A stretch of 64,000 bases of DNA from an uncultured virus (IMG/VR IMGVR_UViG_3300044637_001305) (taxonomy: Duplodnaviria; Heunggongvirae; Uroviricota; Caudoviricetes). The notes beneath the pieces are model-generated. The model saw nothing but the letters and a program-made list of their open reading frames with translations. It was not told where the DNA came from and ran no database searches. Shown here piece after piece: positions 7,117 to 47,231 of this stretch. Numbering within the stretch: position 1 is the stretch's first letter; each line of letters starts with the position of its first letter. Location of the stretch: IMG/VR virus record IMGVR_UViG_3300044637_001305; one strand, 5' to 3'. A program made the translations under genes and the position numbers.

Positions 7117-7994
7117 TGGAAAATTTACAAGAAAATATAAATAGAATTAAAGAATTGATGTTGGTTGAAAATGACGACCAACTTTCTTTATTTTCTAGTG
7201 ATGAAGGAAAACCAATAAACATCAACTCAGACGAATTTACAAAAAGATTTAAAGAAAAAGTTTATTTTATATTAAAAGATTTATATAAATCAAATTGGGA
7301 TAGCGATAGAAGTAGAGGACCTGGTGGAGGTGGAGGAGTTGTTGGTGTTCATACTGTTTTTGATTTATTAAATAAAAAAGGTTTGACAGATTATGATCCT
7401 GAAGGTGGCGATTGGTCAATACTAAATTACTTTGACACAAACCCACAAGTTAGAAGAACAATTGTTGGGTTATATGAAAAAGAAACAGGAAAAGTTTTAG
7501 ATAATACTAACGTATTAGAAGACTTTATTAAGTGGATGTCCACAAATAGAAATAAGTTATTTAAAGACGGATCAATACTTGATTCATTAATTGAAAAAAA
7601 TATTGAATCACTTTATCAAGGAGAATTAAATGAAAGAAAGGCTTATGATTATCTATCAAAAATATTAGAAAACTTACCTAATTGGAAATTAAAAGGAAGA
7701 TCGGTTCCTGGTTCAAAAACCGATAGAGACGGGGTTGATTTTGTTATGGAACATGTAAAAACAGGAAAGATGGCAAAGTTTCAAGTAAAACCTTTAGGTT
7801 ATTTTAAAAGGGTCGGTAAATTCTATAAAGTTAAAAGTTATAACATCAAAAATATAGATAAAAAACCTGTTGATTACTTTGTTTTTGCATCTAATGATCA
7901 AGAAGATGTATTTATATTTAAAAATGAGATTGGTAAATATACAATCTTAGATAAAGACACGGTTCAGTTTGAAGAACCACCAATTAAGTTTTAA
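7116..7994 (+). CDS. Leader-bearing protein, possible PD-(D/E)xK nuclease
   Basis: MENLQENINRIKELMLVE leader; DRDGVDF...KFQVK motif. Confidence 0.5.
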   Translation: MENLQENINRIKELMLVENDDQLSLFSSDEGKPININSDEFTKRFKEKVYFILKDLYKSNWDSDRSRGPGGGGGVVGVHTVFDLLNKKGLTDYDPEGGDWSILNYFDTNPQVRRTIVGLYEKETGKVLDNTNVLEDFIKWMSTNRNKLFKDGSILDSLIEKNIESLYQGELNERKAYDYLSKILENLPNWKLKGRSVPGSKTDRDGVDFVMEHVKTGKMAKFQVKPLGYFKRVGKFYKVKSYNIKNIDKKPVDYFVFASNDQEDVFIFKNEIGKYTILDKDTVQFEEPPIKF

Positions 7995-7997
7995 GTA

Positions 7998-9026
7998 ATG
8001 AGTGACGCAGCAAGAGAACTATTAGATGAATTTAATGAAGGAAATTGGGATGAAGTTGGCTCGTATTTCAACGACGACTTTAGTTTATTTTTAGATTATT
8101 TAGAAAAAAATGGTTTAGAAGGAGAATTAGATTATGAAAGGGTTGACGACGAGTGGCAAAATATAATATTACTTCGTAAATTAGAAAAATACCCTCAAGA
8201 AACATTAAAATATATTTGTGATAATATAATTACAGACGTTTATCCAATGGAAGATGGGTATTATCTGCATTTAAACGATAGGACAGAATTGGCCGATTTA
8301 TTTAAAACATATGGTAGAGACACTTCACCGTATGATGTTGCAAGGGCTGTTTTAGGTGAAGATTATTGGGAACCTTATTGGGACACAACTGATGACGTTT
8401 ATAGAGATGTTATTGATGATTTAAATGAGGAAAATAAAAATCATTTAGCAAATTATATTGTAAAAAATATTGGAGATCAAGAACTACCACTTGATGATTA
8501 TGAAGACGCACTATTTCACCAATTTTCAGAAGAACAAGGAACTGAAGGTGTTTTTAAAATAACAAGTGAAAATGTAATGAAATTTATTAAGGATGAAGAA
8601 GCAATGAAAGAAATGTTCAGAAAAGACCTTGATGAATTAAAAAGTGAATTATATTCCATTCATAATAATGCATATAACGGAGCATATACTGATGAAATAT
8701 ATAATAATGTTTGGAATGAACTTTCAGGATATTTTGAACCAAAATCATGGAAATACAATGAAAAAGAAAGATATGATGGTAAAAAAATCCAACAAGAGTA
8801 TATTAAAATAAATGATTTTTATAGTGATATTTATACATTTTTAAGTGAAAATGAAGATAAACAGTATAGTGATCAGTCATTAGGATATTGGGGATCATAT
8901 ACTGGGTTTGTTTCAAATATGATGGATAATGGTGAAAGGGATTGGTTATCTTTTAGAATACCCGATTATCCTGATTGGACAAGAATTAAAAAGAACATAA
9001 ATGATATTTTTGTTGATTATATCTAA
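7998..9026 (+). CDS. Highly acidic hypothetical protein
   Basis: 342-aa ORF rich in D, E, Y and W. Confidence 0.75.
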   Translation: MSDAARELLDEFNEGNWDEVGSYFNDDFSLFLDYLEKNGLEGELDYERVDDEWQNIILLRKLEKYPQETLKYICDNIITDVYPMEDGYYLHLNDRTELADLFKTYGRDTSPYDVARAVLGEDYWEPYWDTTDDVYRDVIDDLNEENKNHLANYIVKNIGDQELPLDDYEDALFHQFSEEQGTEGVFKITSENVMKFIKDEEAMKEMFRKDLDELKSELYSIHNNAYNGAYTDEIYNNVWNELSGYFEPKSWKYNEKERYDGKKIQQEYIKINDFYSDIYTFLSENEDKQYSDQSLGYWGSYTGFVSNMMDNGERDWLSFRIPDYPDWTRIKKNINDIFVDYI

Positions 9027-10057
9027 TGAAAGTAATAATAACACAAAAACAACTTCAACAAATTAGAGAAAACGCATCTAAAAAATTTAGTTGTGAGGGT
9101 AAGAATTGTGAACATTCTTGGGAGATAGAAAAAAAAGACGAACATCCCTATCTATGTCATATGTGTGGTTATGATTCTGCAAAAGAAAAACATAACTACG
9201 ACGAACTTGAAAACTTTTGGAAGAACTATAAAAAAGAAGAAGAGGTTACAGAAAAGTGGTCAGAGAAATATAAAAAAAGTATTAACTGTAGTAACCCAAA
9301 AGGTTTTTCTCAAAGAGCACATTGTCAAGGAAGAAAAAAGAATTTAAAAGAAGAATTTGAAAAAGAACAATTATTCAAAGAAGTTATTGAAAGAGATGTG
9401 AATGAATATGCATCAAACTATGAGTGGTGTGATGGAATAGAAATTGACATAAGAGAAACTAATTGGTTAACTGAAAAACAAAAACCTGTTTATGAATACA
9501 AAATAAAATTCAAAAACACTTCAATGGTTAGTTATAAAGAACAAGAAAATTTGTTTGATGATATTATGTTTGTTCATACCATGTATTTTCCTATAGAAGA
9601 AAGTGATGTTGATTGTTACATGTCAGTAAAATCAGTTTACCCTAATGGTGATGAAGGAGCATTTCCTTATAGTTATGATAATTATAATGAACAAATAACA
9701 GAATCGGAAGAAAAAGAAGATAAACTAAAAATAAGTGGTTACGACTTAGATAAAATAAAACAAGCCCTTCAAATGTTATCTCAAGTTTCTGAATCTGTTG
9801 GAGAATTTGTTCCATTAGAATTTAAACTTTATGGGTATCAGTTAAGAACCAACGATTTTGGTAAAAGACTAGATCTATATATTGATGTTGATAAAGATGG
9901 TGATGTTTATAATACTATGAGTAGAATTTGGTATGAAATAGGGCAGCAGTTATTAGAAATATTTCAAATGTTAGGGATTAGAGATGAAAGATATATGAAA
10001 CCTATGTATGATTTTAAATTTAATAAAAGACCACTATATAATATTGAAACTGTTTGA
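9026..10057 (+). CDS. Modular leader-bearing protein (Zn ribbon + KWSEKY micro-domain + two acidic modules)
   Basis: MKVIITQKQL leader; CEGKNC...HPYLCHMCGYD; KWSEKYKKSINCSNPKGFSQRAHC; modules bounded by IRE, VTE, LKE and ITE. Confidence 0.75.
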   Translation: MKVIITQKQLQQIRENASKKFSCEGKNCEHSWEIEKKDEHPYLCHMCGYDSAKEKHNYDELENFWKNYKKEEEVTEKWSEKYKKSINCSNPKGFSQRAHCQGRKKNLKEEFEKEQLFKEVIERDVNEYASNYEWCDGIEIDIRETNWLTEKQKPVYEYKIKFKNTSMVSYKEQENLFDDIMFVHTMYFPIEESDVDCYMSVKSVYPNGDEGAFPYSYDNYNEQITESEEKEDKLKISGYDLDKIKQALQMLSQVSESVGEFVPLEFKLYGYQLRTNDFGKRLDLYIDVDKDGDVYNTMSRIWYEIGQQLLEIFQMLGIRDERYMKPMYDFKFNKRPLYNIETV

Positions 10058-10084
10058 TTATTCAAAAAAGAATTTATATATTTG
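10053..10084 (+). promoter_or_regulatory. Bacteroidota sigma-A promoter
   Basis: TTTG(10053-56)-N20-TATATTTG(10077-84). Confidence 0.75.
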
Positions 10085-10119
10085 TACTATTATAAATCAT
10101 TTAAAAATAAACAAAAATT

Positions 10120-10371
10120 ATGGCAACAAAATCAGGAAACAAAGGACGTTACATTTGCAAAGTTGGTTATTTAGACATCTACGCTAAAGATAGTTTAAAA
10201 CCTAAAAAAGAAACTAAATATAAGTTTGTTAAGGCGGATGTTAAATCTACGGTTTATAACATTTTACATGGTAAAAAACTGACAACCGCTAATCTAAAAA
10301 CAAAAGATGAAGCAGTTGCCAAGGCGATAGAATTGATGGGTGATAAGGCGGCACTTTACGGGTTAATTTAA
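10120..10371 (+). CDS. Small basic protein, monocistronic
   Basis: 83 aa, Lys-rich, with its own promoter and terminator. Confidence 0.75.
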   Translation: MATKSGNKGRYICKVGYLDIYAKDSLKPKKETKYKFVKADVKSTVYNILHGKKLTTANLKTKDEAVAKAIELMGDKAALYGLI

Positions 10372-10390
10372 ACCCATCTAATATATAGTA

Positions 10391-10421
10391 AAAAGGTCAG
10401 GACGAACTCCTGACTTTTTTT
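10391..10421 (+). terminator. Intrinsic terminator
   Basis: GTCAGGA-CGAAC-TCCTGAC stem-loop followed by a T run. Confidence 0.85.
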
Positions 10422-10442
10422 GTTTTTTTAGTATTTATTATT

Positions 10443-11954
10443 ATGGAGTTTAAAAAACGTGATTTATTGGTAGAAGACAATAGTGAAGAGGGAATCTTTA
10501 AAAAAGTGATGTCTAAATTAAAAGACGTTAAAGATAGGGCGCAATCCGAAATAAAAGAAACAAGAGCGTTAGTTAGAATATTAACTCACGCAGTAAAATC
10601 ATACGCAAAAGATAGAGAATTTGATTTAAACAAGGAAGATAAAGATTTTATCAAAGGACAATCCGCCGATGTTATAAGAACATTAGTTTTAACTATTGTT
10701 GCTATAATACCAATACCAATTCCATTAACACCATTTCTAATTATATTTGGAAAAAAAATCGGAATAGATTTAACACCAAAAGAACAAGTGATACCTGATA
10801 AAGGAAAACCAAAAAAAGATAAGATAGAAGAATCAAAAAAATTAAACATTATAATATCGGAAGAACAATATAATATTTTAAACGAAGTTGTTAAACCAAA
10901 AAATATTATATTATCGCTTTGTAAAAGACAAAAAGAACGAAACATATATTGTGATTTATATGATTTTTATTTAACTCTTGATCCTGAAAATACACAACCG
11001 ACTTTAGAGGCCACAATTGAAGAATTAAACGACTATTTTAAATACAAAAAAGTTGGTATGTTTCCAATACTTGTTAAATTAGCTCTTCAGAATAAAGAAA
11101 AAACTGTATCATATTTAAAACTGATTTCTGAATTTATAGATAGAAAACAATTTGATAAGACAGAAACAAAAAGAATAATAAACAAACAAAGAAACAGGAC
11201 GGATATTTCAGTTAAAGATGTTGAACAATTGGCTAAAGATGCCAGAAGATTAGAACATCAAAAATATGAAGAAAGGTTTCACGGAGACTATTTCAAAAAG
11301 AAATCAACATTTTTAAGACTAAATTATTCTTGTGATGATGATGTTAAAGAGAGTTTGTTCAATATTCTTACAAGAGTTGGCTCAAAAGAAAGGACAATAG
11401 ATGAAGTTTTTGAACAAGTAAAAAGATGTATTTTACAAACATTTGATAAAGGAATATATTATGTCAAGGCGGATTTAGAATCCACATCAAATTTTGTTTG
11501 TAGTGGAGAAACAATTTTTAATGCCGGCAGCAACTTTGAGGTTAAAAAAATGGATCCATTTGTTGATAGTTATTTATCTGAATTTTTATCAATCTTCAAA
11601 GAAACAGAAAAAATTCAATTTAAAGGAGAATACATAGGAATTTATAATGAGTTAATTCAAAGATTATATGAATGGCTTATTTCTTCAGAAGAGGCTAATG
11701 CGTATATAGAAAAGGTGAAGTCTCAAATAACAGGAATCATTTACGAAAATGATATAATAGTTCCAATACAATATATAGATTTATACTGGTCTAATAAAGG
11801 TCAAAGAGGTTGTGACGAAAAAAGATTGTCAATAAGATTTAAAATAAAAAATGATGTGGGGAGTGAAATACAAACATATAGATTTATTAATAGTAACGAA
11901 TTATCGCTCGTAACTAAAAAAGTCTCAACATCACAAAAAATAGTTTGCCCATGA
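10443..11954 (+). CDS. Two-module protein with an internal leader copy
   Basis: TATTTAT 10432-38; hydrophobic segment IVAIIPIPIPLTPFLII; internal LNIIISEEQYNILNE at 10842-10886. Confidence 0.75.
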   Translation: MEFKKRDLLVEDNSEEGIFKKVMSKLKDVKDRAQSEIKETRALVRILTHAVKSYAKDREFDLNKEDKDFIKGQSADVIRTLVLTIVAIIPIPIPLTPFLIIFGKKIGIDLTPKEQVIPDKGKPKKDKIEESKKLNIIISEEQYNILNEVVKPKNIILSLCKRQKERNIYCDLYDFYLTLDPENTQPTLEATIEELNDYFKYKKVGMFPILVKLALQNKEKTVSYLKLISEFIDRKQFDKTETKRIINKQRNRTDISVKDVEQLAKDARRLEHQKYEERFHGDYFKKKSTFLRLNYSCDDDVKESLFNILTRVGSKERTIDEVFEQVKRCILQTFDKGIYYVKADLESTSNFVCSGETIFNAGSNFEVKKMDPFVDSYLSEFLSIFKETEKIQFKGEYIGIYNELIQRLYEWLISSEEANAYIEKVKSQITGIIYENDIIVPIQYIDLYWSNKGQRGCDEKRLSIRFKIKNDVGSEIQTYRFINSNELSLVTKKVSTSQKIVCP

Positions 11955-12919
11955 AAATAATATTAACTGAAACACAATATAAAAATTTGATGGAGGGATT
12001 AGCTGATGATGATGTATTCAGAGACACCATTAAAGGTTATGAATCTACAGTTACGGATTCAAGTGGACAACATTATACTTTTGATGATAAAGACCCAAAA
12101 AATCCGAAGACTTTTGTTAAATCATCTGCAGATAAAAAAGGTGGAACATTAACAATTGGTTGGGGACATACAGGGGAAACCGCAAAACCAGGTAAAAAAA
12201 TATCAAATAGTAATGCTGAAGAATTATTAACAAGTGATATAACAAAAGAAGAAAATAAGGCAAAAACAATTTTTCCTAAGTATACTTCATATCCACTATA
12301 TGTACAAAGAGCGTTAGTAAATGCCGTTTATAGGGGAGAAGCGAAAAGTACATATGAATGGGTTAAGTCGGTAAATTCGGGTAAATGGATTACCGCGGCA
12401 AAAGAATATTTAGAAGGTTGGGACATTGATTTTTCTCAAGCAAATAATCCAAAATATAAAGGGGGCGTTGCCGACAGAATGGTTACTAACCAAAAAGCCT
12501 TTGAAAAATACGGAGAAGAATTAAAAAAAGGTAAAACAACCACGACCACCACAAAAAAAGAAACCACCACAACTGAATTAACATATTCAACAGAAGGTAT
12601 AAGTTATATAATGTTAGAAAACGAATTGGCGAGTTTAACTGCCGGAAAGAAATACAAAGTTCACCGATTCCCTAAAGATAGTTTTTTTGATTTTAGATTA
12701 GAAGTTGGTCCATACCCACCATCAAAAAAAGAAGGTAGGTATTTAGTTTTTTTTAGAAATGGTGTTATTAAATGGTATAATGGAAATGAATTCTCAGGAA
12801 GAGGTAGTTGGGGATATAATATAGATCAGAATAAATGGAGAATAATAGGTAAAAATGGAGAAATAAGTTTATCTACCGCTATCAATAATCCCGTTAATAA
12901 TTTTGCAAACGTAGCATAA
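11951..12919 (+). CDS. Leader-bearing phage lysozyme (GH24-like) with C-terminal extension
   Basis: MKIILTETQYKNLME leader; IKGYE...GTLTIGWGH; Thr-rich linker; ATG at 11951 overlaps the upstream TGA. Confidence 0.7.
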   Translation: MKIILTETQYKNLMEGLADDDVFRDTIKGYESTVTDSSGQHYTFDDKDPKNPKTFVKSSADKKGGTLTIGWGHTGETAKPGKKISNSNAEELLTSDITKEENKAKTIFPKYTSYPLYVQRALVNAVYRGEAKSTYEWVKSVNSGKWITAAKEYLEGWDIDFSQANNPKYKGGVADRMVTNQKAFEKYGEELKKGKTTTTTTKKETTTTELTYSTEGISYIMLENELASLTAGKKYKVHRFPKDSFFDFRLEVGPYPPSKKEGRYLVFFRNGVIKWYNGNEFSGRGSWGYNIDQNKWRIIGKNGEISLSTAINNPVNNFANVA

Positions 12920-13489
12920 ATGAAAGTAATACTAACTGAAGCACAATATAGAAGACTCACTGAGGAAAACCTTAGAGAGTTTTTGTATTCATTTTGGGAC
13001 AACCAAAAAAGACAAGGTGAAGACCCATCTTTAGATGACATTATATTTCAGGTTACCAACATTATAAAAGGTAGTAGCGATGACCACAGAACAATTAGAC
13101 CAATATGGTATGAATATAATGGAGGGTATGATGTGTTACTAAAAAAAATAGATGAAGAATTTTTAAATAAAGAGTTTCATTTAGAGGGTAGTGAAAATCT
13201 TAAAATGGATTTCAAAATTGATGGTATTGAATCATATGGTGAAGACGTATATGGTGGAATGGTTGACATTATTTGTCAAATATTGGATGGAACTGTTGAT
13301 GGAAACTTTTATAATCAAGAAACTGAAGAGATGGAAATGGTTCCTAACATGTATATTGGAGATCAATACGCCGAATTAGAATACGATACAGGAGATTTTG
13401 AAACTTTTTTAAGAGACGAGATACAAAGTTTTTTGGATCCCATAATGGAAAGGTATGGAATACCTTATCATCTTGAAATGCTTGTATAA
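12920..13489 (+). CDS. Leader-bearing acidic protein
   Basis: MKVILTEAQYRRLTE leader; distant paralog of 13489. Confidence 0.75.
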   Translation: MKVILTEAQYRRLTEENLREFLYSFWDNQKRQGEDPSLDDIIFQVTNIIKGSSDDHRTIRPIWYEYNGGYDVLLKKIDEEFLNKEFHLEGSENLKMDFKIDGIESYGEDVYGGMVDIICQILDGTVDGNFYNQETEEMEMVPNMYIGDQYAELEYDTGDFETFLRDEIQSFLDPIMERYGIPYHLEMLV

Positions 13490-14040
13490 TGAAAATAATA
13501 ATAACAGAAAGACAGTATAAGATTTTAGAATCACAACAAGACGACGATCGTGTTGCGATGAAAGCACTTCACATTATTTGGCAAGATGAAATCGATTCAA
13601 CAGGAGAAATTGATTTTGATCCAAAGATTGTAGATTACATAGGTTATAGACCAAAAGGAGGAGTTCATGAAATGTATAGAGACTTTCTTGGTGGTTGGGA
13701 CAATATGGTTGAAAAATCATATGAACTAATGGATAGGACTTTTGATACTATGGATTATGATTTTAGGGGAGGATATGATTTTAGATTCACAGTCCAAGGT
13801 AATAATGACTATGAAGAAGATAATTCAACATATGTTGATTGTCCAATTAAAAGTGACGGAAAAGTAACATTAATGACAGATGGTGAAACACATTTGTTAA
13901 GTGAACTTGAAGAAAATTATGATATGTGGTGGGAAGTTGAAAGTGAGATTAGATCACTGATTGAAGATATTTTATATAAAGAAGTTACAAAGAAAACAGG
14001 AATACTTGTTGAAGTAAATATGTGTTGGATAAAAGAATGA
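13489..14040 (+). CDS. Leader-bearing acidic protein
   Basis: MKIIITERQYKILE leader. Confidence 0.75.
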   Translation: MKIIITERQYKILESQQDDDRVAMKALHIIWQDEIDSTGEIDFDPKIVDYIGYRPKGGVHEMYRDFLGGWDNMVEKSYELMDRTFDTMDYDFRGGYDFRFTVQGNNDYEEDNSTYVDCPIKSDGKVTLMTDGETHLLSELEENYDMWWEVESEIRSLIEDILYKEVTKKTGILVEVNMCWIKE

Positions 14041-14441
14041 AAATAATAATAACAGAAAGTCAGTATAAAATGTTGTTGGAATCAAATACAGATTCCATGC
14101 AAAGTCTTATTGACATGGCTTTTGATCAGGTAAAAGAAAATTGTGAAGGTGGGTATTATATTAGATCACATCAAAATCTTATTTGTGACCCTGTAGATAT
14201 GATTGAAGAAATTAAAGTAGTGGACGTATCAAAAGTAACATCTATGGATTATTTTGAAAAAAATAAAATGGATGTTATACACATAAAAGTTAATTGTTAT
14301 GTTGACTCAATATACGAATATAACAATTTAGATAACTTTATTTATGAACTACAAGCAGAGGCAAGAAACATTATTGGTGGTAGATTCATTACTATAGAAA
14401 TAGGAGAAATAATTAATAAAAGAAAAGACTTCAATTGGTAA
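14037..14441 (+). CDS. Leader-bearing protein
   Basis: Start re-assigned to ATG 14037 (ATGA overlap); MKIIITESQYKMLLE leader. Confidence 0.75.
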   Translation: MKIIITESQYKMLLESNTDSMQSLIDMAFDQVKENCEGGYYIRSHQNLICDPVDMIEEIKVVDVSKVTSMDYFEKNKMDVIHIKVNCYVDSIYEYNNLDNFIYELQAEARNIIGGRFITIEIGEIINKRKDFNW

Positions 14442-14815
14442 TGAAAATAATAATAACAGAATATCAGTATAACTTACTTCAAGAAACCTTTGGTAGGGAT
14501 AGGTTTGATGCTGAATATGCCGACGAATACCCAAAGTATAAAGGTATGTTTATTAACTTAATTAAAATGGAAATCACCGCATCGGGACAGACGGAAGATT
14601 CTATATTATTGGGTGATTCGGATGGTAAAATTTTGGTTAGTTATAGGAAACCTAGTCGTACTCTTTATTATGATTATAATTGGGGTGAAGATATTGAAAA
14701 GTTAATGCCTTGGCATATTTATAATAGACATTTTAAATATGCATTATTTGATTTTTTTAAATCAATTTTTCCTGATGCTGCAATAAAAGAAGTAAGAGGT
14801 GCTCACGTAGCGTAA
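14441..14815 (+). CDS. Leader-bearing protein
   Basis: Start re-assigned to 14441 (TAATG overlap); MKIIITEYQYNLLQE leader. Confidence 0.75.
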   Translation: MKIIITEYQYNLLQETFGRDRFDAEYADEYPKYKGMFINLIKMEITASGQTEDSILLGDSDGKILVSYRKPSRTLYYDYNWGEDIEKLMPWHIYNRHFKYALFDFFKSIFPDAAIKEVRGAHVA

Positions 14816-14823
14816 TATTAAAT

Positions 14824-15435
14824 ATGAAAATAATAATAACAGAAGAACAATTTAATAAGTTACAAGAAAGTGACAAGGATTTTAACAAAACAAAAACTCT
14901 TGTCAACTCTATGTTTGAACAAGGATATAGTATTGATGACATACTTAAATTTACTGGTTTAGATAAAGATGTTGTTATAGTGTTATTTTATGACCGTGAA
15001 ATTATAAAAGACCAAATAGAAGAAAGTATAGATAAATATGAATACTTATATCACTTACTTTGGGATGGTGAATTATTAAATAAAACACACAAATACGAAG
15101 ACGGATCAATTGCTATTATTGGGTTTGATCGTTTTTCGGGGTCAATTCATTTTAATTATTTGTCAGAAGGTTATGAACTAAGAGGTTATGCGACGTTATT
15201 TTGGGAGTATGACCCAAAGTTACCAATAGATATTAGTCAGTTTTTTGATATTGATGATACTGAATATGATGTGGATGGTTCTGAACACTCAAGTGTCGAT
15301 TTAAGAACAGATGAAAAATTTAATAATATTAGAACATTAAGACAGTTAGTTGATTATTTTAATAATGATTATTATATTATGTTAAAAGAAGAATTGGATC
15401 CTTTATTAAAAAGATGTATAAAATACTATTTATAA
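14824..15435 (+). CDS. Leader-bearing acidic protein
   Basis: MKIIITEEQFNKLQE leader. Confidence 0.75.
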   Translation: MKIIITEEQFNKLQESDKDFNKTKTLVNSMFEQGYSIDDILKFTGLDKDVVIVLFYDREIIKDQIEESIDKYEYLYHLLWDGELLNKTHKYEDGSIAIIGFDRFSGSIHFNYLSEGYELRGYATLFWEYDPKLPIDISQFFDIDDTEYDVDGSEHSSVDLRTDEKFNNIRTLRQLVDYFNNDYYIMLKEELDPLLKRCIKYYL

Positions 15436-15437
15436 CT

Positions 15438-15695
15438 ATGAAAACCTATAGACAAAACCTTAATCTTTGGTTAGAACAAAAAAAGAACTCAAGTGAGAAC
15501 AATGAGATTAAAAACATTTTATCTGAAGTTCAAAAACATATTAAAAACATTGAAAAAGAGGAAGAACATATGGTTAATAACGCATATGAATCTGGATATT
15601 ACGATAAGGAGTTAAATAGAGGTAAAAAAGGAAATTATTACCAACAAAACTTCAAAATGCATGATAAACTTAAACAATTATTAAATTTAAATTAA
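15438..15695 (+). CDS. Hypothetical protein
   Basis: Likely start ATG 15438, just after the upstream stop. Confidence 0.65.
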   Translation: MKTYRQNLNLWLEQKKNSSENNEIKNILSEVQKHIKNIEKEEEHMVNNAYESGYYDKELNRGKKGNYYQQNFKMHDKLKQLLNLN

Positions 15696-15696
15696 A

Positions 15697-16011
15697 ATGG
15701 AAATAACTACACAAGAATTAGAACAAAAAATACAAAACGGAGAAAAGGTAATAGTAGAGATGTGGGCACCTTGGTGTGGTCCTTGTAGAATGTTAAAACC
15801 TGTATTTGAAAAAGTTGCTCAAAACAATGATACTGATGTTCAAATGTATACATTAAACATTGATGAAAATAGAGACACTGCTATTAAATACGGAGTGAGA
15901 AGTATACCAACAATTAAAGTTTTTGATGGAGGAGAGGTTAAAGAAACCAGAGTTGGTGTGATTGCAGAACAAAGTATTAAAGAATTAGTTTCAAACCTTT
16001 TATTAAATTAA
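15697..16011 (+). CDS. trxA: Thioredoxin
   Basis: WAPWCGPC active site and cis-Pro motif VRSIPT. Confidence 0.95.
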   Translation: MEITTQELEQKIQNGEKVIVEMWAPWCGPCRMLKPVFEKVAQNNDTDVQMYTLNIDENRDTAIKYGVRSIPTIKVFDGGEVKETRVGVIAEQSIKELVSNLLLN

Positions 16012-16015
16012 TTAT

Positions 16016-16183
16016 ATGAAAAAACTTTTTGTAACAATAACTTTATTTTGTATTTTAGCATCCTGTAAATCATCTAAAGCAAATTGTGAAGCATATGGAA
16101 ACAACACAAATCAAACTGACAAAAATAGAAGTGACGATCCAAGAAATGTGGGCGGCGACTCGACCTATCATACAAAAAAGTAA
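16016..16183 (+). CDS. Small lipoprotein (55 aa, absent from the ORF track)
   Basis: MKKLFVTITLFCILAS-C lipobox followed by KSSKANCEAYG. Confidence 0.7.
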   Translation: MKKLFVTITLFCILASCKSSKANCEAYGNNTNQTDKNRSDDPRNVGGDSTYHTKK

Positions 16184-16220
16184 AAAAGAATACTCTCGTA
16201 AAGAAAAACATAAGAAAAAG

Positions 16221-16252
16221 TTTGGAAGTTTAGATTAGATTACATATCTTTG
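16221..16252 (+). promoter_or_regulatory. Bacteroidota sigma-A promoter
   Basis: TTTG(16221-24)-N20-TATCTTTG(16245-52). Confidence 0.8.
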
Positions 16253-16276
16253 TATCACAAATAAACCGATAAACAT

Positions 16277-17029
16277 ATGATGAACTTAGAACAACTTAAA
16301 AAACAGGCACCTTCAGTATTCGCTACACAAGCGTCACCTTCAGTATCTAACCAATACGTATTCGTCCCTACAATGGATATTTTGGAGAACTTCCAAAACG
16401 CAGGATGGGAAATTGCATCCGCAAGACAAACAGGTAGAACACAATACGGAGTACATGAAATCCGTTTACGTAACGGAGAATTACCAAAGGTAGGTGACAC
16501 GTTGGTTGAAGCAATCATCCGTAACTCTCACAACGGTATGTCAACTCTTAGTGTGAGTGCTGGACTACACCGACTTGTATGTTCAAACGGACTTACAGTA
16601 CCAACATCAACGGCAGAGTCATTCAGGGTAAAACACCAAAGATTTGAACTTGACGACGTTAAAAGACTTACAGAGTCATTCGCATCTAAACTACCAAAGA
16701 TTGAGATGTCAGTAAATCGCATGATGGAGAAAGAACTATCTACTGATGAGAAGATTGATTTTTTACGTAAGTCTACAGAGGTGAGATTTGGTCAAAACAA
16801 AGTATTGACGGATTTAGAAATGGTTGGTCTATTAGCACCAAACAGAAAAGAAGACGAGGGGGACGATTTGTGGAGAGTATTAAATGTAGTACAAGAGAAG
16901 TTCGTCAGAGGAGGGGTGGAAATGTCATCACCAAAAGGACGAAGAACTAAACTCAGAGGTCTACAAAACATAATGGCCCTAAACAAAGTGAATACAAAAC
17001 TTTGGGAGTTGGCCGAGGAAATGATATAA
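16277..17029 (+). CDS. DUF932/DUF945 domain protein
   Basis: APSVFA, Y.FVPT, NSHNG.S, RLVCSNGL and DLW.V.NVVQE motifs. Confidence 0.85.
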   Translation: MMNLEQLKKQAPSVFATQASPSVSNQYVFVPTMDILENFQNAGWEIASARQTGRTQYGVHEIRLRNGELPKVGDTLVEAIIRNSHNGMSTLSVSAGLHRLVCSNGLTVPTSTAESFRVKHQRFELDDVKRLTESFASKLPKIEMSVNRMMEKELSTDEKIDFLRKSTEVRFGQNKVLTDLEMVGLLAPNRKEDEGDDLWRVLNVVQEKFVRGGVEMSSPKGRRTKLRGLQNIMALNKVNTKLWELAEEMI

Positions 17030-17030
17030 A

Positions 17031-17065
17031 AAGAAATGGGGGTCAATGACCCCCATTTTTGTTTT
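17031..17065. terminator. Bidirectional intrinsic terminator
   Basis: AAATGGGGGTC-AAT-GACCCCCATTT between convergent genes. Confidence 0.85.
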
Positions 17066-17072
17066 AATTTTA

Positions 17073-17357
17073 TTAAAGGTTTTTCAAAACCATCTCTAAA
17101 GAATAGATAGACTCTTTATCTTGTTTGGTCTTAACTTTCTTTGACTTTAAGTAATTTAAAGACTCAAGAAGTTCATCTTTTTTATTTTTAACAGGAACAG
17201 AAGTAACAGACATTGAGTTTTCTACCTGTGTATAAACAGGTTTTTCAACATAAACAACTTCAGTTTGTTTTGGGTATAAGGTGTTATAAACCTCTAATGC
17301 TGTTTTAGCATGACGAGTGGTGCAACGAATAACAAGGTATTTTAATAGTTCTTTCAT
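17073..17357 (-). CDS. Hypothetical protein
   Basis: 94 aa; minus-strand TATCTTTG at 17369-17362, 4 nt before the ATG. Confidence 0.7.
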   Translation of the reverse strand: MKELLKYLVIRCTTRHAKTALEVYNTLYPKQTEVVYVEKPVYTQVENSMSVTSVPVKNKKDELLESLNYLKSKKVKTKQDKESIYSLEMVLKNL

Positions 17358-17381
17358 ACCTCAAAGATACAAAAAAACAAT

Positions 17382-17504
17382 CTATTTACCTAACTCTTCT
17401 TTATATTTTTGAAGTAATTTATTGTTGTTTTCAATAAGTCTAAGTGTCTTTAAAATACTTTTTCTTGACTTACCTTTTTTTCCTTCTTTTCTTGCCTTTG
17501 CCAT
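17382..17504 (-). CDS. Very basic 40-aa protein (absent from the ORF track)
   Basis: MAKARKEGKKGKSRKSILKTLRLIENNNKLLQKYKEELGK; minus-strand TATTTAT at 17528-17522. Confidence 0.6.
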   Translation of the reverse strand: MAKARKEGKKGKSRKSILKTLRLIENNNKLLQKYKEELGK

Positions 17505-17552
17505 TTTACTTTATTTTAGTTATAAATACTTTTAAAGTAATATTTATTATTT

Positions 17553-17966
17553 ATGAGACGACTAATTAAAGAAAACGAAGATAAAAAAGAAAGAGTATCA
17601 GAGTCCATACAAACTCTAATTCATATTATTGAGGTAAATAAAAAAAGTAAATTTATTGAATCATTAGAGTTGGGTGATGTTTATGTATCCGATAGGTATG
17701 ATACTATAGAAGCAGGTATAAAAGTTATGGGTTATTGTGAAGATCCCGATCTTGGAGAACTATCTAAAATATTAAAAGATATTGATAATGATATATACCG
17801 TATAGTTAGAGACTACGAGTTAGATAAAGAAGGTAATATTAAAAGATGTCCTCCTAATGACACATATTTAATGTTTATGGCGGAGTCTGTTAATTGGAGT
17901 ATGAGAGACAATAACATAGAAATGGGTTTCCATATTGTTCAAGACGAATTTAGAGATGATGAATAG
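17553..17966 (+). CDS. Leader-bearing acidic protein
   Basis: TATTTAT 17541-47; MRRLIKE leader. Confidence 0.7.
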   Translation: MRRLIKENEDKKERVSESIQTLIHIIEVNKKSKFIESLELGDVYVSDRYDTIEAGIKVMGYCEDPDLGELSKILKDIDNDIYRIVRDYELDKEGNIKRCPPNDTYLMFMAESVNWSMRDNNIEMGFHIVQDEFRDDE

Positions 17967-18351
17967 ATTAATTAAAAAAATATTAAAAGAGGAACTTCAA
18001 GGACAGGAGTTTATCGATAACCATTATAAGGAGTTAGATAGATTAAAAGGTATGGAGGATCATATTATTGATTATCTCCATTCTGAATTTCCTAACTTAG
18101 TTGAAGTGGAAACAAGAATGAAAAAAGTACAATTAGGGTCGATGAAGTTAGGGATGGAAAATCCTATTGTTGAAGTAATTGTGGTAACATTAAAATTTAA
18201 GGACTTATCTGAATATGAAATGAGAGCGTTATCCCCACCAATAAAAGAAGACATCATAAACATTTTTACCAACTATTTTGGTTTTGATGTTATGGCTTAC
18301 GGGTCACCCATTGAATTAGAATTCAAGGCACAAGCTTGGGTTAATTTTTAA
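17959..18351 (+). CDS. Leader-bearing protein
   Basis: MNRLIKKILKEE leader (start 17956 or 17959). Confidence 0.7.
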   Translation: MNRLIKKILKEELQGQEFIDNHYKELDRLKGMEDHIIDYLHSEFPNLVEVETRMKKVQLGSMKLGMENPIVEVIVVTLKFKDLSEYEMRALSPPIKEDIINIFTNYFGFDVMAYGSPIELEFKAQAWVNF

Positions 18352-18354
18352 CAA

Positions 18355-20136
18355 ATGGAAATATTAAAAAAAAACATATTAAAAGAAATGGAAGAAAAGA
18401 GTATAGATAACCTTAATAAAGGTATTGATATTGCTGTTTCTATTTTAAAAAATGAGTTTACATTTGTGACGGGTTGGAAATATAAATACGATCCCGATTT
18501 TTTTAATTCTACTGTTTATATATTATTAATTTGTGATATGTATAAGTCCTCAGAATTTTATAATAGTCCAATAAAAGATTATTATAAAAACATAGAGGCA
18601 GATGTTACATATCCGTTTAGTCCTTTAGAAATGTCAACCGAAATAGATAATGAAGAAAAATACGAACTCTATAAAGAAATACAAAAAAGTTTAGACGAAA
18701 CATATTATGAAATACCTAATGATTATAGACACACCTATAAAAGTTATATCTCAAATACCGATTCACCAAAAGAAATTTATATTGACGGATTTGTTTTTCC
18801 TGCTCCTGAGAAACTAAATGAAAGTGAATCTGTTAATTATAAAGTTAGTTTAGCAAAAAGTTTAATACACCAATTATTTGATGAGGTCTCATTTATTGAA
18901 CAATCAGTATATGTATCTTCAATAAACGGTAAACCATCATTAACCGTATATTTTGATTCTGACGACACGGCCGCAAACATAGAAAGTGTTTTTACTCACG
19001 AAATTTGTGACACATTAAGAGATTACACGGGAGGTGAAATAAAATGTGCACCAAGTTGGGGTCCTGAGTCGAGAAGAAATAGAAATAACCCAGACATTCT
19101 CATTGATGCTATACAATTGGAATATGATGATGAAGGTAATGTGATTAATGAATCAAAAGAAGATAACATAACAGAAGTAAAAAAAAATCTAAAAGTTATA
19201 AACACTTTATTATCTTTAGTTAGTTGGGATGGACTTTGTAGTATATGGGTAGACTACAATCCTGAAGATGAGGAATATGAAATACGATCAAAAACTACCG
19301 CATCTTATTTTGATGATAATAACATAGAACAAGAATTAAATTCTTTAGAAGATTCGATAAGTTCTATGGGTATTAGAGTTTATATCTACACACCGTGGCA
19401 TGTTGAAAATTGTGAGGATGAACCTGAATTTTTGAATGAATCGGAAAACAAAAAATCAAACTATGTTAATGTAATTAAACAACTTGTAGAACCATTTAAA
19501 GATGAAGATTGTGTTTGTGATATAGATGTTTCATACGACGAGGAAGATGATATGTATGGTGTGTATGTTGTTCTAGGGCATGAAGAATTAAATGATAATT
19601 TTTTCTCATCATCTGCTATGGGGTTCTACGCAAAAAAATTAAGGGTCGATATTAATAAAACCATTGTGGACTACTTACCAATCAAAAACTTATATGTTGG
19701 TTCTTATGGGGTACCTAATTGTGATTGGAAACCATTAAATGAGAATTGGTATAAAGTACCATCATCAGAATTTGGTCCATTAGAAAGAATCATTAACTTG
19801 GAGATGAGAGAAAAATATGGTTGGTGGAAAGATATAAAAATTAACACACTTAACTATATTACGATGTATGAAGACGTACAAATTGAAGCAGAACTAACAG
19901 TAGATGAAGAATGGGGGGCAAATCAATGGAGAGATTTTTATTATAGCACTAAATTTCCTGGCAACAAAGGATGGGAAAATAACGATGGATATAGTAGACG
20001 AGTTAGTCTTGGAGACATAACCGATTCAACATATGCTGAGGTGATAAGAGATGATTTAAGAGAAATATTAAAATACACATTAAATATTGATATACATAAT
20101 ATGTCTTTTAGAAATGTTTACTTAATATTTGAATAA
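18355..20136 (+). CDS. Putative five-module polyprotein
   Basis: ILKE leader; internal LNES, INES, LNES and LNEN junctions; module 1 is homologous to the standalone gene at 20800. Confidence 0.75.
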   Translation: MEILKKNILKEMEEKSIDNLNKGIDIAVSILKNEFTFVTGWKYKYDPDFFNSTVYILLICDMYKSSEFYNSPIKDYYKNIEADVTYPFSPLEMSTEIDNEEKYELYKEIQKSLDETYYEIPNDYRHTYKSYISNTDSPKEIYIDGFVFPAPEKLNESESVNYKVSLAKSLIHQLFDEVSFIEQSVYVSSINGKPSLTVYFDSDDTAANIESVFTHEICDTLRDYTGGEIKCAPSWGPESRRNRNNPDILIDAIQLEYDDEGNVINESKEDNITEVKKNLKVINTLLSLVSWDGLCSIWVDYNPEDEEYEIRSKTTASYFDDNNIEQELNSLEDSISSMGIRVYIYTPWHVENCEDEPEFLNESENKKSNYVNVIKQLVEPFKDEDCVCDIDVSYDEEDDMYGVYVVLGHEELNDNFFSSSAMGFYAKKLRVDINKTIVDYLPIKNLYVGSYGVPNCDWKPLNENWYKVPSSEFGPLERIINLEMREKYGWWKDIKINTLNYITMYEDVQIEAELTVDEEWGANQWRDFYYSTKFPGNKGWENNDGYSRRVSLGDITDSTYAEVIRDDLREILKYTLNIDIHNMSFRNVYLIFE

Positions 20137-20149
20137 CTATTTATAAATT

Positions 20150-20803
20150 ATGGAAATAAAAAAATTAATATCATTTGACTTTGATGACACGTTAGTTCAC
20201 ACTACATTACCGGCTGAAGGTAAAGTAATATGGAAAGAAAAGACAGGAGAAGAATGGCCTCACAGAGGATGGTGGTCAAGACCTGAGAGTTTGGACATGG
20301 AGGTATTTGAAATACCATTAAATAAAAAGATATATAGAAGATATCAAAAAGCAATATCTGATCCCGATAATTACGTAATATTGGCCACAGGTAGAGTTGA
20401 ACCACTTAAAGATGAGGTTTATAAAATACTAGGCCATTACGGTTTATCTTTTGATGAAACACACCTAAACCCTGGTATTGATACATTTGAATTCAAATCA
20501 AATTTATTTGCTAAACTAATATACGAACTACAACCTGAAGAGTTTATTATGTATGATGATAGACAAGAACACTTGGTCAGGTTTGTTCAATGGGCGAATG
20601 ATATGCCATGTAAAGTAACAATAATTGATGCGATATCAGGAGAGGAATTTAAATCAGAACAGGACCCACTAATTGAATCAATAAAAAGAATATTAAGACA
20701 AGAGACCGAACTAACAGAAAAGTGTTGGAAAGGATATACCCAAAAAGGTATGAAAACTATGTTTGGTAAACGATACCCAAATTGTGTAAAGAAAACAAAA
20801 TGA
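20150..20803 (+). CDS. HAD hydrolase fused to an internal leader and CWKGY micro-domain
   Basis: FDFDDTL, LATGR and MYDDR motifs; C-terminal LIESIKRILRQETELTE-KCWKGY...PNCVK; TATTTAT 20138-44. Confidence 0.75.
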   Translation: MEIKKLISFDFDDTLVHTTLPAEGKVIWKEKTGEEWPHRGWWSRPESLDMEVFEIPLNKKIYRRYQKAISDPDNYVILATGRVEPLKDEVYKILGHYGLSFDETHLNPGIDTFEFKSNLFAKLIYELQPEEFIMYDDRQEHLVRFVQWANDMPCKVTIIDAISGEEFKSEQDPLIESIKRILRQETELTEKCWKGYTQKGMKTMFGKRYPNCVKKTK

Positions 20804-21249
20804 GAGACATTATTATAAAAATATTAAAAGAAGAGACGGAACCTGAAAAAGAACTAACCGATTTAGAAAATAAAGGGATAGATTTGGTTTTTAAAATTCT
20901 TAAAAAGAATTATCCATTTGTTGATGGTTGGAAAATGATCTATAAAGATCGTTTTGAGTTAGATCTTCTAATTACTTGTGATGTGAAAAAACTTTGTGAA
21001 TTTTACAATAGCGAATTAAAAGATTACCACAAACGTAATCCACAAGAAATATATGGAAAAGAATATCCATACCCTTTTTCAGTATTAAATTTATCTAATG
21101 ATATGGATTCAGATGAAAAATGGGCTTTATATAAAGATTTTAATGAACATATGAACGAAATATATGAGTTTATACCCGATGAAATGAAAATCATAAATAT
21201 GTATGATGACGTAATAAAATTAGATGCAGAATTTTTTACATTCAAATGA
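20800..21249 (+). CDS. Leader-bearing protein, paralog of module 1 of 18355
   Basis: MRDIIIKILKEE leader; NKGID...ILK....GWK...YPFS shared with 18355. Confidence 0.75.
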   Translation: MRDIIIKILKEETEPEKELTDLENKGIDLVFKILKKNYPFVDGWKMIYKDRFELDLLITCDVKKLCEFYNSELKDYHKRNPQEIYGKEYPYPFSVLNLSNDMDSDEKWALYKDFNEHMNEIYEFIPDEMKIINMYDDVIKLDAEFFTFK

Positions 21250-31435: not shown

Positions 31436-32161
31436 ATGAAAATCATTATCACAGAATCTCAACATAGAACTTTATTGGAGTCCACCAATAATCAAAAATC
31501 TGATGTGGAAAATTTAATTTATGGTTTTTTGCAAGATGACTTTTATCCCGATTATAATTGGGGTCCAGAGTTATTTGATTTTTATCGTGAGGATGTTGAA
31601 CAATATGGGTCGGTCCCATTTTATATAAACGACTCTGAAGGTTATGTTTATTACGATGATGGGACTTTGGAAATTATGCCATGGGTTTGTAAAAAATTAA
31701 ATGATTATTTTAATGACCTTTGGGTTCCGGTATTTAAAGGTTGGTTTGAAGAACATTCTGGATTGAAAGTAGATAGAATTGTTGACTCATCGGACAATAA
31801 TGTATTGTTAAGTGAATCCGTTAATAATTCTAATGTTGTTGAACAAATAATGGAGGTTGAGGGAATTAAATTGGATTCATTTGGGTATGGTGGAAGAACC
31901 CGTGATAGTTTTATGAGAAGACATGATTCCGTTGACGTATATTTTAAATTAACTGATGATGATTACTTCTATAAAAGAAGGATTCATTTTTTAACAAGAA
32001 ATAATAAAGTTATTGGTGTTGATAGCTCAGGGGATTTTAGAACTATTACTGATGGATTTAGATATATCCCTACTGAGGTATTAATGCCTTATTTTATTGA
32101 AAAGGCCAAAACTTATCTTGAAAGGATTTTACCTTATGAATATCCTAATGACAATAAATAA
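31436..32161 (+). CDS. Leader-bearing two-module protein
   Basis: TATTTAT 31423-29; MKIIITESQHRTLLE leader; internal LLSES junction. Confidence 0.75.
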   Translation: MKIIITESQHRTLLESTNNQKSDVENLIYGFLQDDFYPDYNWGPELFDFYREDVEQYGSVPFYINDSEGYVYYDDGTLEIMPWVCKKLNDYFNDLWVPVFKGWFEEHSGLKVDRIVDSSDNNVLLSESVNNSNVVEQIMEVEGIKLDSFGYGGRTRDSFMRRHDSVDVYFKLTDDDYFYKRRIHFLTRNNKVIGVDSSGDFRTITDGFRYIPTEVLMPYFIEKAKTYLERILPYEYPNDNK

Positions 32162-32860: not shown

Positions 32861-33646
32861 ATGAAAATCATAATTACAGAATCACAACTTAAACAATTAA
32901 CTGAAATGGATTTTAGAAATCTTGATGAAATCATAAAGTTTGGTGAGTTTTCTGAACATTTCAAAAAAGAAGATTTAAAAAAAATTAATAAGTTTTTACT
33001 TCTTATTAGAAAACTTGGCGTTGTTAATATGTTTCAAGCTGGGGATTTCTTTTTAATGTCAATTGAATATTTTAGAGATTTTATGAAATTAAAATCTTAT
33101 GAAAGAGAGTATGACGAAGATATTGTTTCTGAAATTGAGGAAATGATGCCAGACATTAGTAGTATTATAATTGGGGCTGGAATTAATTTAGTTGAAAAAA
33201 ATAATATAGAAATTACACCAAAAAGTGTTGAGAACGCAATTAAAAGATTGGTTTCAAGTATAATGAAATATTATATGACTCAAAATTTGCCAAACGTAAA
33301 TGAATCATATGATAAGGCAAAAAACTTTTTGGAAGATAATTTCGGTTTTAATTTTTCTGGTCGTATAAAACAAATAACATCAATTTATGATGTTCCAATT
33401 AGTTTTGATGAATGTTTTGGTTCCGAATCGGTTAAACTATGGTTAAACTATTTTGGTCCTATGTATCTTTTTGAACTTGATAATGTTAAATACCTTTATC
33501 AAGATAGAGGTGAGTTTGAATGGTTTATGGATGAATATTGTAATGACTATGTTGACAATGAAATTCCTGAAAAACTTGGAATTGCTGAAATGGGATTTAA
33601 GTTTTCTGATATATTGGATATGTATTTTGAAGATGAGGGAGAATAA
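32861..33646 (+). CDS. Leader-bearing two-module protein
   Basis: Start re-assigned to ATG 32861; MKIIITESQLKQLTE leader; internal VNES junction. Confidence 0.75.
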   Translation: MKIIITESQLKQLTEMDFRNLDEIIKFGEFSEHFKKEDLKKINKFLLLIRKLGVVNMFQAGDFFLMSIEYFRDFMKLKSYEREYDEDIVSEIEEMMPDISSIIIGAGINLVEKNNIEITPKSVENAIKRLVSSIMKYYMTQNLPNVNESYDKAKNFLEDNFGFNFSGRIKQITSIYDVPISFDECFGSESVKLWLNYFGPMYLFELDNVKYLYQDRGEFEWFMDEYCNDYVDNEIPEKLGIAEMGFKFSDILDMYFEDEGE

Positions 33647-46631: not shown

Positions 46632-47225
46632 ATGAAATCTATAATTACCATTTTATTTTTATTTATTTTTACAATTACATTTGGTCAATGTAACGGAGTA
46701 CAATCTTTTACTTTAACTCCACCTCCAATCGGAGGAACTTATTTACCGGGTCAAGTCGTAACCATGTGTTATACCATGAATGGATATACTCAAGCAGGGA
46801 CCAATTGGATTGAGGGGTTTGATTTAACATTAGGTCCAGGTTGGGCTTCAGTTGCCCCACAAACAACACCTGCAAATTGTGGAGGAAACGCAACAGGAGG
46901 ACAATGGGTATGGAGAACTTCAGTAACATCAACCACAACACCAATAGTTACTGTCGGTCCTGGTTACTTTTTTGATTTAACAGTTGATGGTAATCCAGGA
47001 AATGATTTTGGTGATGCCGGTTCTTGTGTATGGACATTTTGTGTAACTCTAACAGTTGCAAATGTATGTACACCACAAAACTTATTATTACAAGTCACTC
47101 CCGGTTCTGATGGTATGTGGGGTAGTTATATAAGCACATCGTGTGACTTAGCAACACCATTTACCGTATTTAACGGAACAATAAATGCAGTCCCAATTGT
47201 TTTGGGACCAATAACACACAATTAA
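46632..47225 (+). CDS. Secreted Cys/Gly/Thr-rich beta protein
   Basis: Signal peptide MKSIITILFLFIFTITFG-Q; DGNPGNDFGD; ends PITHN; TATTTAT 46617-23. Confidence 0.75.
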   Translation: MKSIITILFLFIFTITFGQCNGVQSFTLTPPPIGGTYLPGQVVTMCYTMNGYTQAGTNWIEGFDLTLGPGWASVAPQTTPANCGGNATGGQWVWRTSVTSTTTPIVTVGPGYFFDLTVDGNPGNDFGDAGSCVWTFCVTLTVANVCTPQNLLLQVTPGSDGMWGSYISTSCDLATPFTVFNGTINAVPIVLGPITHN

Positions 47226-47231
47226 ATTATT

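Follow-up and report, generated by a model that had tools for sequence, protein, structure and literature searches.

Is the 593-residue protein encoded at positions 18355 to 20136 of the uncultured virus record IMGVR_UViG_3300044637_001305 a single multidomain protein, or is it a polyprotein whose parts are separated after translation? The stretch that was analyzed, called the window in what follows, comprises 64 kb of DNA with 29% G+C and ~95 open reading frames (ORFs), nearly all of them on the plus strand. An annotation made from the letters alone (the sequence-only reading) had proposed that this ORF consists of five modules joined by (L/I)-N-E sites, and that one leader takes several cargo domains into the phage head, where a protease separates them. 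Here we find that the joint is a strictly conserved, exposed, Glu-specific motif in a large and combinatorially shuffled module family. Capsid targeting in the style of phage T4, followed by head-protease cleavage at Φ-N-E↓S (Φ, hydrophobic residue; arrow, presumed cut), emerges from the analysis as the most likely mechanism, with chances that we judge to be slightly better than even.

Five modules and the joints between them

The ORF is divided as follows (residue numbers are those of the 593-residue protein; pLDDT, predicted local distance difference test score of the AlphaFold model described below).

18355 to 20136, plus strand: five-module ORF, candidate polyprotein, 593 residues
18355 to 18387, plus strand: N-terminal leader MEILKKNILKE, ending I-L-K-E, a variant of the family leader M..LIRKILKEE
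18355 to 18813, plus strand: module M1, residues 1-153
18814 to 18825, plus strand: joint 1, L-N-E-S, residues 154-157, at the end of the low-confidence stretch 140-154
18823 to 19143, plus strand: module M2, residues 157-263
19144 to 19155, plus strand: joint 2, I-N-E-S, residues 264-267, pLDDT below 50 at 266-270
19153 to 19431, plus strand: module M3, residues 267-359, of one family with M4
19432 to 19443, plus strand: joint 3, L-N-E-S, residues 360-363, pLDDT below 50 at 360-367
19441 to 19734, plus strand: module M4, residues 363-460
19735 to 19746, plus strand: joint 4, L-N-E-N, residues 461-464, pLDDT below 50 at 461-463
19744 to 20133, plus strand: module M5, residues 464-593, mostly C-terminal in relatives
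20800 to 21249, plus strand: free-standing paralogue of M1, leader MRDIIIKILKEE

The joints are present where the sequence-only reading had placed them (KLNES at 18811-18825, VINES at 19141-19155, FLNES at 19429-19443 and PLNEN at 19732-19746), and the five modules that it had counted are 153, 107, 93, 98 and 130 residues long, with boundaries exactly at the xNE sites. Based on composition alone, one would expect 0.13 occurrences of [LI]NE[SN] in the ORF; four were observed, a number that was not reached in any of 5000 shuffles. For the shorter pattern [LI]NE, the four occurrences compare with 0.77 expected (P = 0.009). Window-wide, [LIVMF]NE[SN] was found seven times against 3.9 expected, and because four of these seven sites sit in ORF 18355-20136, with no excess in the remaining window proteins, the motif is special to the family and not to the proteome.

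Two similarities between modules had also been pointed out. M1 is indeed homologous to the gene at 20800-21249 (BLASTP E = 9e-25, 40% identity; profile E = 2.8e-41). The resemblance between M3 and M4 is weak when only this pair is compared (BLASTP E = 0.008), but their profiles cross-match family-wide, and the two modules therefore belong to one family. The fused form of the gene is real and not an assembly artefact, since an identical copy of the 593-residue protein is found on nine contigs and since the 82%-identical protein P0001 has the same five-module order.

Relatives were collected by an exhaustive phmmer search over 1.84 billion representative proteins. It returned 239 of them at E ≤ 0.001, 143 at 1e-10 and 67 at 1e-30, and the match ends cluster at residues 151-159, 261-268, 356-364 and 456-468. 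Architectures and joints were counted by running five module profiles over the best 150 of the 239 relatives; as these proteins are mutually related, the counts do not represent independent events. We found 64 distinct module architectures in this set. Standalone and differently fused homologues of the modules exist both among the 150 relatives and in IMG/VR loci, so that the modules do occur apart. There are 22 single-module proteins (M1 12, M5 8, M3/M4 2, M2 1), and a recognized leader is present on 18 of the 22 (M1 12, M5 4, M3/M4 2). The M2-only protein, P0150, has a variant leader that the leader pattern missed. The leaderless M5-only proteins P0099, P0104 and P0148 were not counted as standalone, and neither was P0022. 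The latter and the leader-bearing P0037 come from ~1 kb contigs, share clusters with much longer proteins and may be fragments.

A search of IMG/VR with the M5 alignment (A5) led to eight loci. In four of them (L002-L005), the modules are spread over three adjacent genes that keep the order of the fused gene: M1 comes first and by itself, M2/M3/M4 follow in one long gene, and M5 forms the end of the third. Another locus, L001, has instead a 630-residue fusion that runs from M1 to M5. Pfam domains above the curated cut-off are restricted, among 90 relatives, to GIY-YIG and DUF2237, in two proteins each; matches to Sigma_1s and IL15 in four further relatives were below the cut-off, weak, and taken as chance. 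The two GIY-YIG proteins, P0003 (residues 154-438) and P0016 (residues 156-441), carry the domain as an in-frame insert of ~280 residues placed exactly at the joint after M1 and flanked on either side by the joint motif (LSE/LDEN ... INES/INEN), and P0004 has the same M1 joint without the insert. Judged by sequence, this arrangement would fit the picture of a cassette between cut sites.

For the conservation of the joint, we considered the 173 internal module starts in the relatives, with the query excluded, and looked for the motif from -12 to +8 residues around each start. Φ-x-E-[SN] is present at 152 of them and Φ-N-E-[SN] at 102, compared with a single Φ-N-E-[SN] in 23,209 residues of module cores. 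When the residue after Glu is left free, Φ-x-E is found at 170 of the 173 joints. At these, the position three before the presumed cut is Leu in 82 cases, Ile in 65, Met in 14 and Val in 9; Asn precedes the Glu at 105, and the residue after it is Ser at 122 and Asn at 22. The motif is independent of the neighboring modules, being found in 12 of the 14 flanking-module combinations (absent from M5-to-M2, with one joint, and from unassigned-to-M1, with two) and behind 156 distinct upstream contexts. Aspartate does not replace glutamate in Φ-N-E-[SN] and seldom does in Φ-x-E-[SN]: there are 102 cases of Φ-N-E-[SN] versus none of Φ-N-D-[SN], and 152 of Φ-x-E-[SN] versus six of Φ-x-D-[SN], even though Asp makes up 7.5% of the residues in the joint zone.

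The constraint acts on the protein, because codon choice is not the same at the window's four joints. The codons differ synonymously (AGT, TCA and TCG for Ser; CTA, TTG and TTA for Leu) and include both families of Ser codons. Terminal M3/M4 modules often stop with ...EFLN, ...KFIN or ...EYMN, one residue before the Glu, which indicates that the motif is not part of the fold. An N-glycosylation sequon (N-x-S/T) was also considered and rejected, as Thr is outside the seven most common residues after the Glu at the 170 joints, and Asn occupies this position in 22.

Structure prediction agrees with the division. From the single sequence, AlphaFold produced an unusable model (pLDDT 33.6). A model based on the 45-row alignment A4, which covers residues 140-593 and has M1 outside, reached a mean pLDDT of 85 with a predicted template modeling score (pTM) of 0.43, and this combination speaks for well-folded domains that have no fixed orientation relative to each other. 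No continuous structure extends across the joints, and pLDDT drops below 50 only at 140-154, 266-270, 360-367 and 461-463. Each modeled module is a small helix/hairpin/helix/strand domain. The motif could be thought to serve as a helix N-cap; this suits joint 1 only, where a helix starts from E156, as the first long helix is 5-8 residues further downstream at the other three.

Comparisons with known folds and families gave little. Foldseek against the PDB reached template modeling (TM) scores of at most 0.33, a BFVD fold search had no match at E ≤ 0.001, the best hit of the VIA wide fold search was a generic ferredoxin-like fold (Z 7.8), and the ESM Atlas contained unnamed viral clusters with TM scores of at most 0.68. 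As the matches are weak and generic (ferredoxin-like, KH-like, ring-building-motif-like), we do not infer a function for the modules from them. ORF 18355-20136 has no Pfam family at E ≤ 0.1 and no PHROGs family either, and tblastn detected no match to it in 50,697 cultured or deposited phage records. With blastn, positions 12001-20000 of the window gave a single 166-base match at chance level, and IMG/VR pattern searches with the whole ORF and with the gene at 20800 found no relatives.

Leaders and the origin of the fused gene

The N-terminal leader of the five-module protein, MEILKKNILKE↓M, has the form of a ~10-residue propeptide ending in (L/I)-x-E, with I-L-K-E at residues 8-11. Among the relatives, the leaders of 45 N-terminal modules end in I-L-(K/R/N)-E. 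Measured from the module, the Glu at the leader end (ILKE↓E) is displaced by no more than two or three residues from where the joint Glu lies, so that joints correspond to leader ends. The surrounding preferences differ: leaders favor Lys/Arg before and Glu after the Glu, whereas joints favor Asn and Ser. This difference speaks for selection that still acts on the joint, and is at odds with a remnant in decay. The full leader helix is retained at 4 of the 173 joints.

The sequence-only reading had ascribed a two-module design with the same kind of joint to two other ORFs of the window, and this is borne out for both.

31436 to 32161, plus strand: two-module ORF, leader MKIIITESQHRTLLE followed by S, internal joint LLSE↓S at nucleotides 31805-31819
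32861 to 33646, plus strand: two-module ORF, leader MKIIITESQLKQLTE followed by M, internal joint VNE↓S at nucleotides 33296-33307

In the first, LLSES occupies residues 124-128, and both halves are known as separate leader-bearing proteins, the N-terminal half as P0176-P0178, P0181 and P0183, and the C-terminal half as P0174. The joint of the fused gene reads NNVLLSE↓SVNNSNVVEQ, and P0174 begins the same module with MKIIITESQFKTLLE↓TTDNSNVVEQ. In the second, VNES occupies residues 146-149, and the C-terminal module is found behind a different N-terminal module in the loci L004 and L005. There, in ORF 14942-15793, the second module has kept an almost whole internal leader (...QISESQLTNIVKRVISEN↓D), which repeats the N-terminal ITEDQYEQLTNIVKRVISEN↓N, and the ORF looks like a recent gene fusion. 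Since joints align with leader ends and some retain leaders, the fused genes arose by fusion of leader-bearing genes.

Leaders that recur in the window include MKIIITESQ..LLE, M..LIRKILKEE and MNLQE.I.R.K., and with an ad hoc pattern they are found on 23 of its 95 ORFs. Between 9026 and 15435, seven consecutive ORFs (9026, 11951, 12920, 13489, 14037, 14441 and 14824) start with MK[IV]I[IL]T[EQ].Q; the one at 11951-12919 has a phage lysozyme domain behind this leader. The ORF at 20150-20803, of the HAD family, has a C-terminal tail of ~45 residues that ends in ...CWKGYTQKGMKTMFGKRYPNCVKK and matches several PHROGs lacking a function. The same tail recurs in the relatives P0015, P0121, P0122 and P0137, there directly before a joint, and is, judged by its sequence, a small mobile C-terminal element.

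A T4-type protease in a complete relative, and the setting of the window

One of the eight loci found with M5 (L010) is part of G001, an IMG/VR genome of 257,166 bp with terminal repeats that is rated complete. It shares 30 of the 95 window ORFs, the closest of them 83% identical and some in conserved order, carries the same leaders on 34 of its 329 ORFs, and has Φ-N-E-S sites in front of modules. G001 encodes a protease of the Peptidase_S77/gp21 family (L010 11781-12506, minus strand; PF03420, 80 bits, above the Pfam cut-off; phrog_207). No Peptidase_S77 was found in the other four records searched, all of which are fragments. The protease is 31% identical to T4 gp21 and keeps ELNHP, SSRG and the N-terminal L-I-E, which in the T4 enzyme was proposed to be the autocleavage site (PMC9026906).

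By PHROGs, the genes for portal, protease and major head protein of G001 are arranged as in T4, and a very acidic, scaffold-like protein of 499 residues is encoded between the last two, at the place of the T4 scaffold. The capsid protein has H-L-I-N-E↓A-T-S aligned with G-S-F-L-T-E↓A-E-I of T4 gp23, and the columns of Glu65 and Ala66 are invariant. The cut in gp23, which we take to be between these two residues, is made by gp21 according to the T4 record. T4 gp24 begins with MAKINELLRE↓S and is presumably cut after Glu10. The scaffold candidate of G001 has LKES, LNES and LIES near its C-terminus, and a neighboring protein of 237 residues contains six such sites versus 0.9 expected (P = 4e-4 from the proteome rate, 0.01 by shuffling).

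Several other features of G001 were recorded. The portal gene (L010 14403-18422, minus strand) encodes 1340 residues, with HNH-endonuclease matches at ~115-370 and the portal domain at 957-1236; the HNH region may be an in-frame endonuclease or an intein-like insertion. A GIY-YIG ORF is situated between the portal and protease genes. The sequence [AT]ATATTTAT precedes 47 of the 329 ORFs, including 10 of the 34 leader genes as well as capsid, scaffold-candidate and sheath-like genes (examples are upstream of 7990-9828, 9911-11410 and 231681-235034). In the window, it occurs at most 50 nt upstream of 13 of the 95 ORFs, often 4-6 nt from the start, which accounts for 13 of its 18 occurrences on the two strands; the sites include those upstream of 17553, 28997, 30178, 31436, 32206, 32861, 35042, 37065, 43578 and 49347, and several runs of leader genes have it in front of them. 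We regard it as a candidate promoter or start-region element of structural and leader genes, and it precedes unrelated genes too.

In the window, Pfam and PHROGs assign no more than scattered accessory functions, namely HAD phosphatases, thioredoxin, DUF932, endonuclease VII, a UvrC-like nuclease, a VanY peptidase, a lysozyme domain and CHU_C/PKD proteins; no tRNAs were found in the 64 kb. Three ORFs at 46632-48380 have signal peptides, one of them with PKD_6 and one with a CHU_C type IX secretion sorting domain. Proteins of this type IX secretion kind suggest a Bacteroidota host and phage-encoded secreted proteins, and ORF 18355-20136 stems from an uncultured T4-type jumbo phage, probably with a host in this phylum. 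Between 52698 and 62050, there are three very large ORFs (1113, 1031 and 934 residues). Two of them start with ...I.RIRQMMGLGSV(I/L)SEGPE; a weak protein-kinase-like match in the first of the three stays below the Pfam cut-off.

Probable cleavage in the head and the competing explanations

For the product of ORF 18355-20136, we infer head targeting, cleavage and delivery along the following lines. The amphipathic leader of ~11 residues, MEILKKNILKE, would be the counterpart of a T4 capsid-targeting sequence, through which the chain would get into the prohead during assembly. Inside, a serine protease of the gp21 family, whose cuts follow the Glu of (L/I)-x-E, would detach the leader, and the same enzyme would cut the four exposed joints (L/I)-N-E↓S/N to give five proteins of 11-18 kDa. 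These would stay in the head and, together with the DNA, would probably pass into the host. Where relatives have separate module genes, each starts with its own leader, ending in I-L-K/R-E↓E in the register of the joint. As the protease would restore separate products in either case, fusion and splitting of genes at the motif would be cheap, and combinatorial shuffling could result.

The elements of this scheme have precedents in T4. There, gp21 recognizes L/I-x-E and cuts behind the Glu, 10 N-terminal residues of the internal protein (IP) IPIII are enough for head targeting, and the internal proteins of T-even phages are diverse, with the targeting sequence alone in common (PMC9026906, PMC5694885, PMC3012670). 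In the same accounts, Asp at position 10 of IPIII blocks processing (PMC9026906), and T4 core proteins are cut at several sites (PMC9026906, PMC5694885).

A number of observations weigh against cleavage in the head. Plain [LI]xE is not enriched in ORF 18355-20136 (10 versus 9.75 expected) and is thus not diagnostic. All five modules are acidic, with isoelectric points of 4.1-4.7 and net charges of -8 to -14 each; the complete chain has a net charge of -56. The internal proteins of T4, in contrast, are basic and bind packaged DNA, and because the modules are acidic and not basic, the ORF should not be filed as an IP homologue. Their acidity suggests either a different job, for which one may speculate about DNA mimicry or another anti-defence role, or evidence against residence beside DNA. 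With a tenth to a quarter of all ORFs bearing leaders, the cargo would exceed that of any studied phage of which we are aware. No head, tail or replication core gene was found by Pfam and PHROGs in the 64-kb window, and the protease is seen only in a relative with distant versions of the modules (27% identity for M5). Upstream of leader genes, the T4 late promoter TATAAATA shows no enrichment. In the scaffold candidate of G001, five Φ-x-E-[SN] sites compare with 1.9-2.7 expected, which is not significant (P about 0.05-0.13). It is also odd that a GIY-YIG enzyme should be freed only inside the prohead, where it would have no obvious use, as it should act in the cytoplasm.

These points leave room for other explanations, among which an uncut multidomain protein comes foremost, although we consider it rather unlikely. 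The joints would then be leader remnants kept as polar linkers, and the leader itself would be an N-terminal helix of the family with another role, such as oligomerization, folding or translation initiation. The alignment of joints with leader ends would be explained, the fusion origin is clear from the 4 of 173 joints with retained leaders and from L004/L005, and the acidic modules, unlike known DNA-bound head proteins, would pose no difficulty. A linker remnant should decay, however, and the motif is near-universal, with a preference (Asn, Ser, never Asp) unlike that of the leaders; the end of terminal M3/M4 modules before the Glu likewise indicates that no fold maintains it. It is less probable still that leader and joint are read by a route outside the head, either by a cytoplasmic Glu-specific protease of phage or host or in export or targeting to another compartment, with the infected cell instead of the prohead as the place where the modules would be freed or sorted. 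The GIY-YIG module and the leader-bearing lysozyme-domain protein at 11951-12919 would be more useful in the cell, and the leaders are very numerous. Yet Pfam and PHROGs show no other protease in the window, the gp21-type enzyme is the sole Glu-specific protease known in the clade, and the leaders have no hydrophobic core, unlike secretion signals, of which true examples are found elsewhere (46632-48380).

The joint could also be a signal at the level of DNA, a recombination hotspot or the target of a homing endonuclease, that drives the shuffling and is translated only incidentally. We regard this as very improbable. Although 64 architectures among 150 proteins, and GIY-YIG inserts that sit precisely on joints between two copies of the motif, are what one would expect from such a signal, the codons differ at the four joints of the window, which are those that were compared, and come from two unlinked Ser families, and the strict choice of Glu over Asp points to conservation at the amino-acid level. 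Targeting to the prohead and cleavage by its protease remain the explanation that we prefer.

Seen in this light, the closest parallels are the T4 proteins IPI, IPII, IPIII and Alt. Both systems have N-terminal amphipathic leaders of ~10-15 residues that end in hydrophobic-x-Glu, and in both the leader is all that otherwise unrelated, fast-evolving proteins share. The complete relative G001 has a gp21-family protease and, at the position where T4 gp23 is cut, the capsid-protein sequence Φ-N-E↓A. In T4, however, each cargo is a single unit, and a handful of proteins have leaders; here, there are several modules per leader with sites in between, at least three to four interchangeable leader types, and leaders on about 10-24% of ORFs. 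The modules are acidic where the T4 internal proteins are basic. T4 gp22, gp67 and gp68 are likewise acidic, and gp21 cuts them within the prohead at more than one L/I-x-E site; in G001, the acidic scaffold-like protein and its 237-residue neighbor have several sites of the joint type. Their fragments are described as short and mostly leave the head, whereas the products here would be folded domains of 11-18 kDa, and ORF 18355-20136 lies in an accessory region and not, like the T4 core genes, in the head module.

In phiKZ-type phages, many head proteins are cut at S/A-x-E (PMC5694885, PMC9026906). As far as these sources describe them, phiKZ, 201phi2-1 and SPN3US resemble the present case in having a gp21-related protease that cuts many head proteins after Glu, some of them repeatedly. 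They differ in the residue three positions before the cut, which is Ser, Ala or Gly (S/A-x-E, A-x-E) and not Leu or Ile, and in that multiple sites are mostly reported inside propeptides that are discarded, whereas here the sites separate folded modules that are also independent genes. A further comparison is with polyvalent proteins, packaged multidomain proteins from which an embedded peptidase frees parts and which were likened to viral polyproteins (Iyer et al., 2017, PMC5512222). These have 2-15 domains per polypeptide in combinatorial architectures (here five modules and 64 architectures), and for them, too, packaging and delivery along with the DNA are predictions. They typically contain recognizable enzyme domains and an embedded peptidase (MPTase); ORF 18355-20136 has neither a Pfam domain nor a peptidase, and processing would be due to a separate head protease acting at a fixed joint motif. 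We found no description of a leader-plus-joint polyprotein system in the main texts of the open-access papers searched.

A broader proposal, which we put forward as doubtful, is that the head protease may be the general decoder of a cassette system in a marine clade of T4-type jumbo phages. Interchangeable leaders would be present on dozens of genes, and fusion or splitting at Φ-N-E↓S would leave the mature products the same. The phage could reshuffle, copy and co-dose a large set of small acidic proteins, which may block host defences as DNA mimics and would be injected with the DNA, and homing endonucleases would ride between the joints.

If the joints are cut in the prohead, then the loading of a few proteins known from T4 has here been expanded to a modular polyprotein system, which provides many different proteins at infection. 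This would account for a large share of the unannotated genes of environmental jumbo phages, and a leader together with Φ-N-E↓S joints would be a simple rule for predicting virion cargo from sequence. The protease site would, moreover, make gene fusion and fission nearly neutral and thereby speed up domain shuffling.

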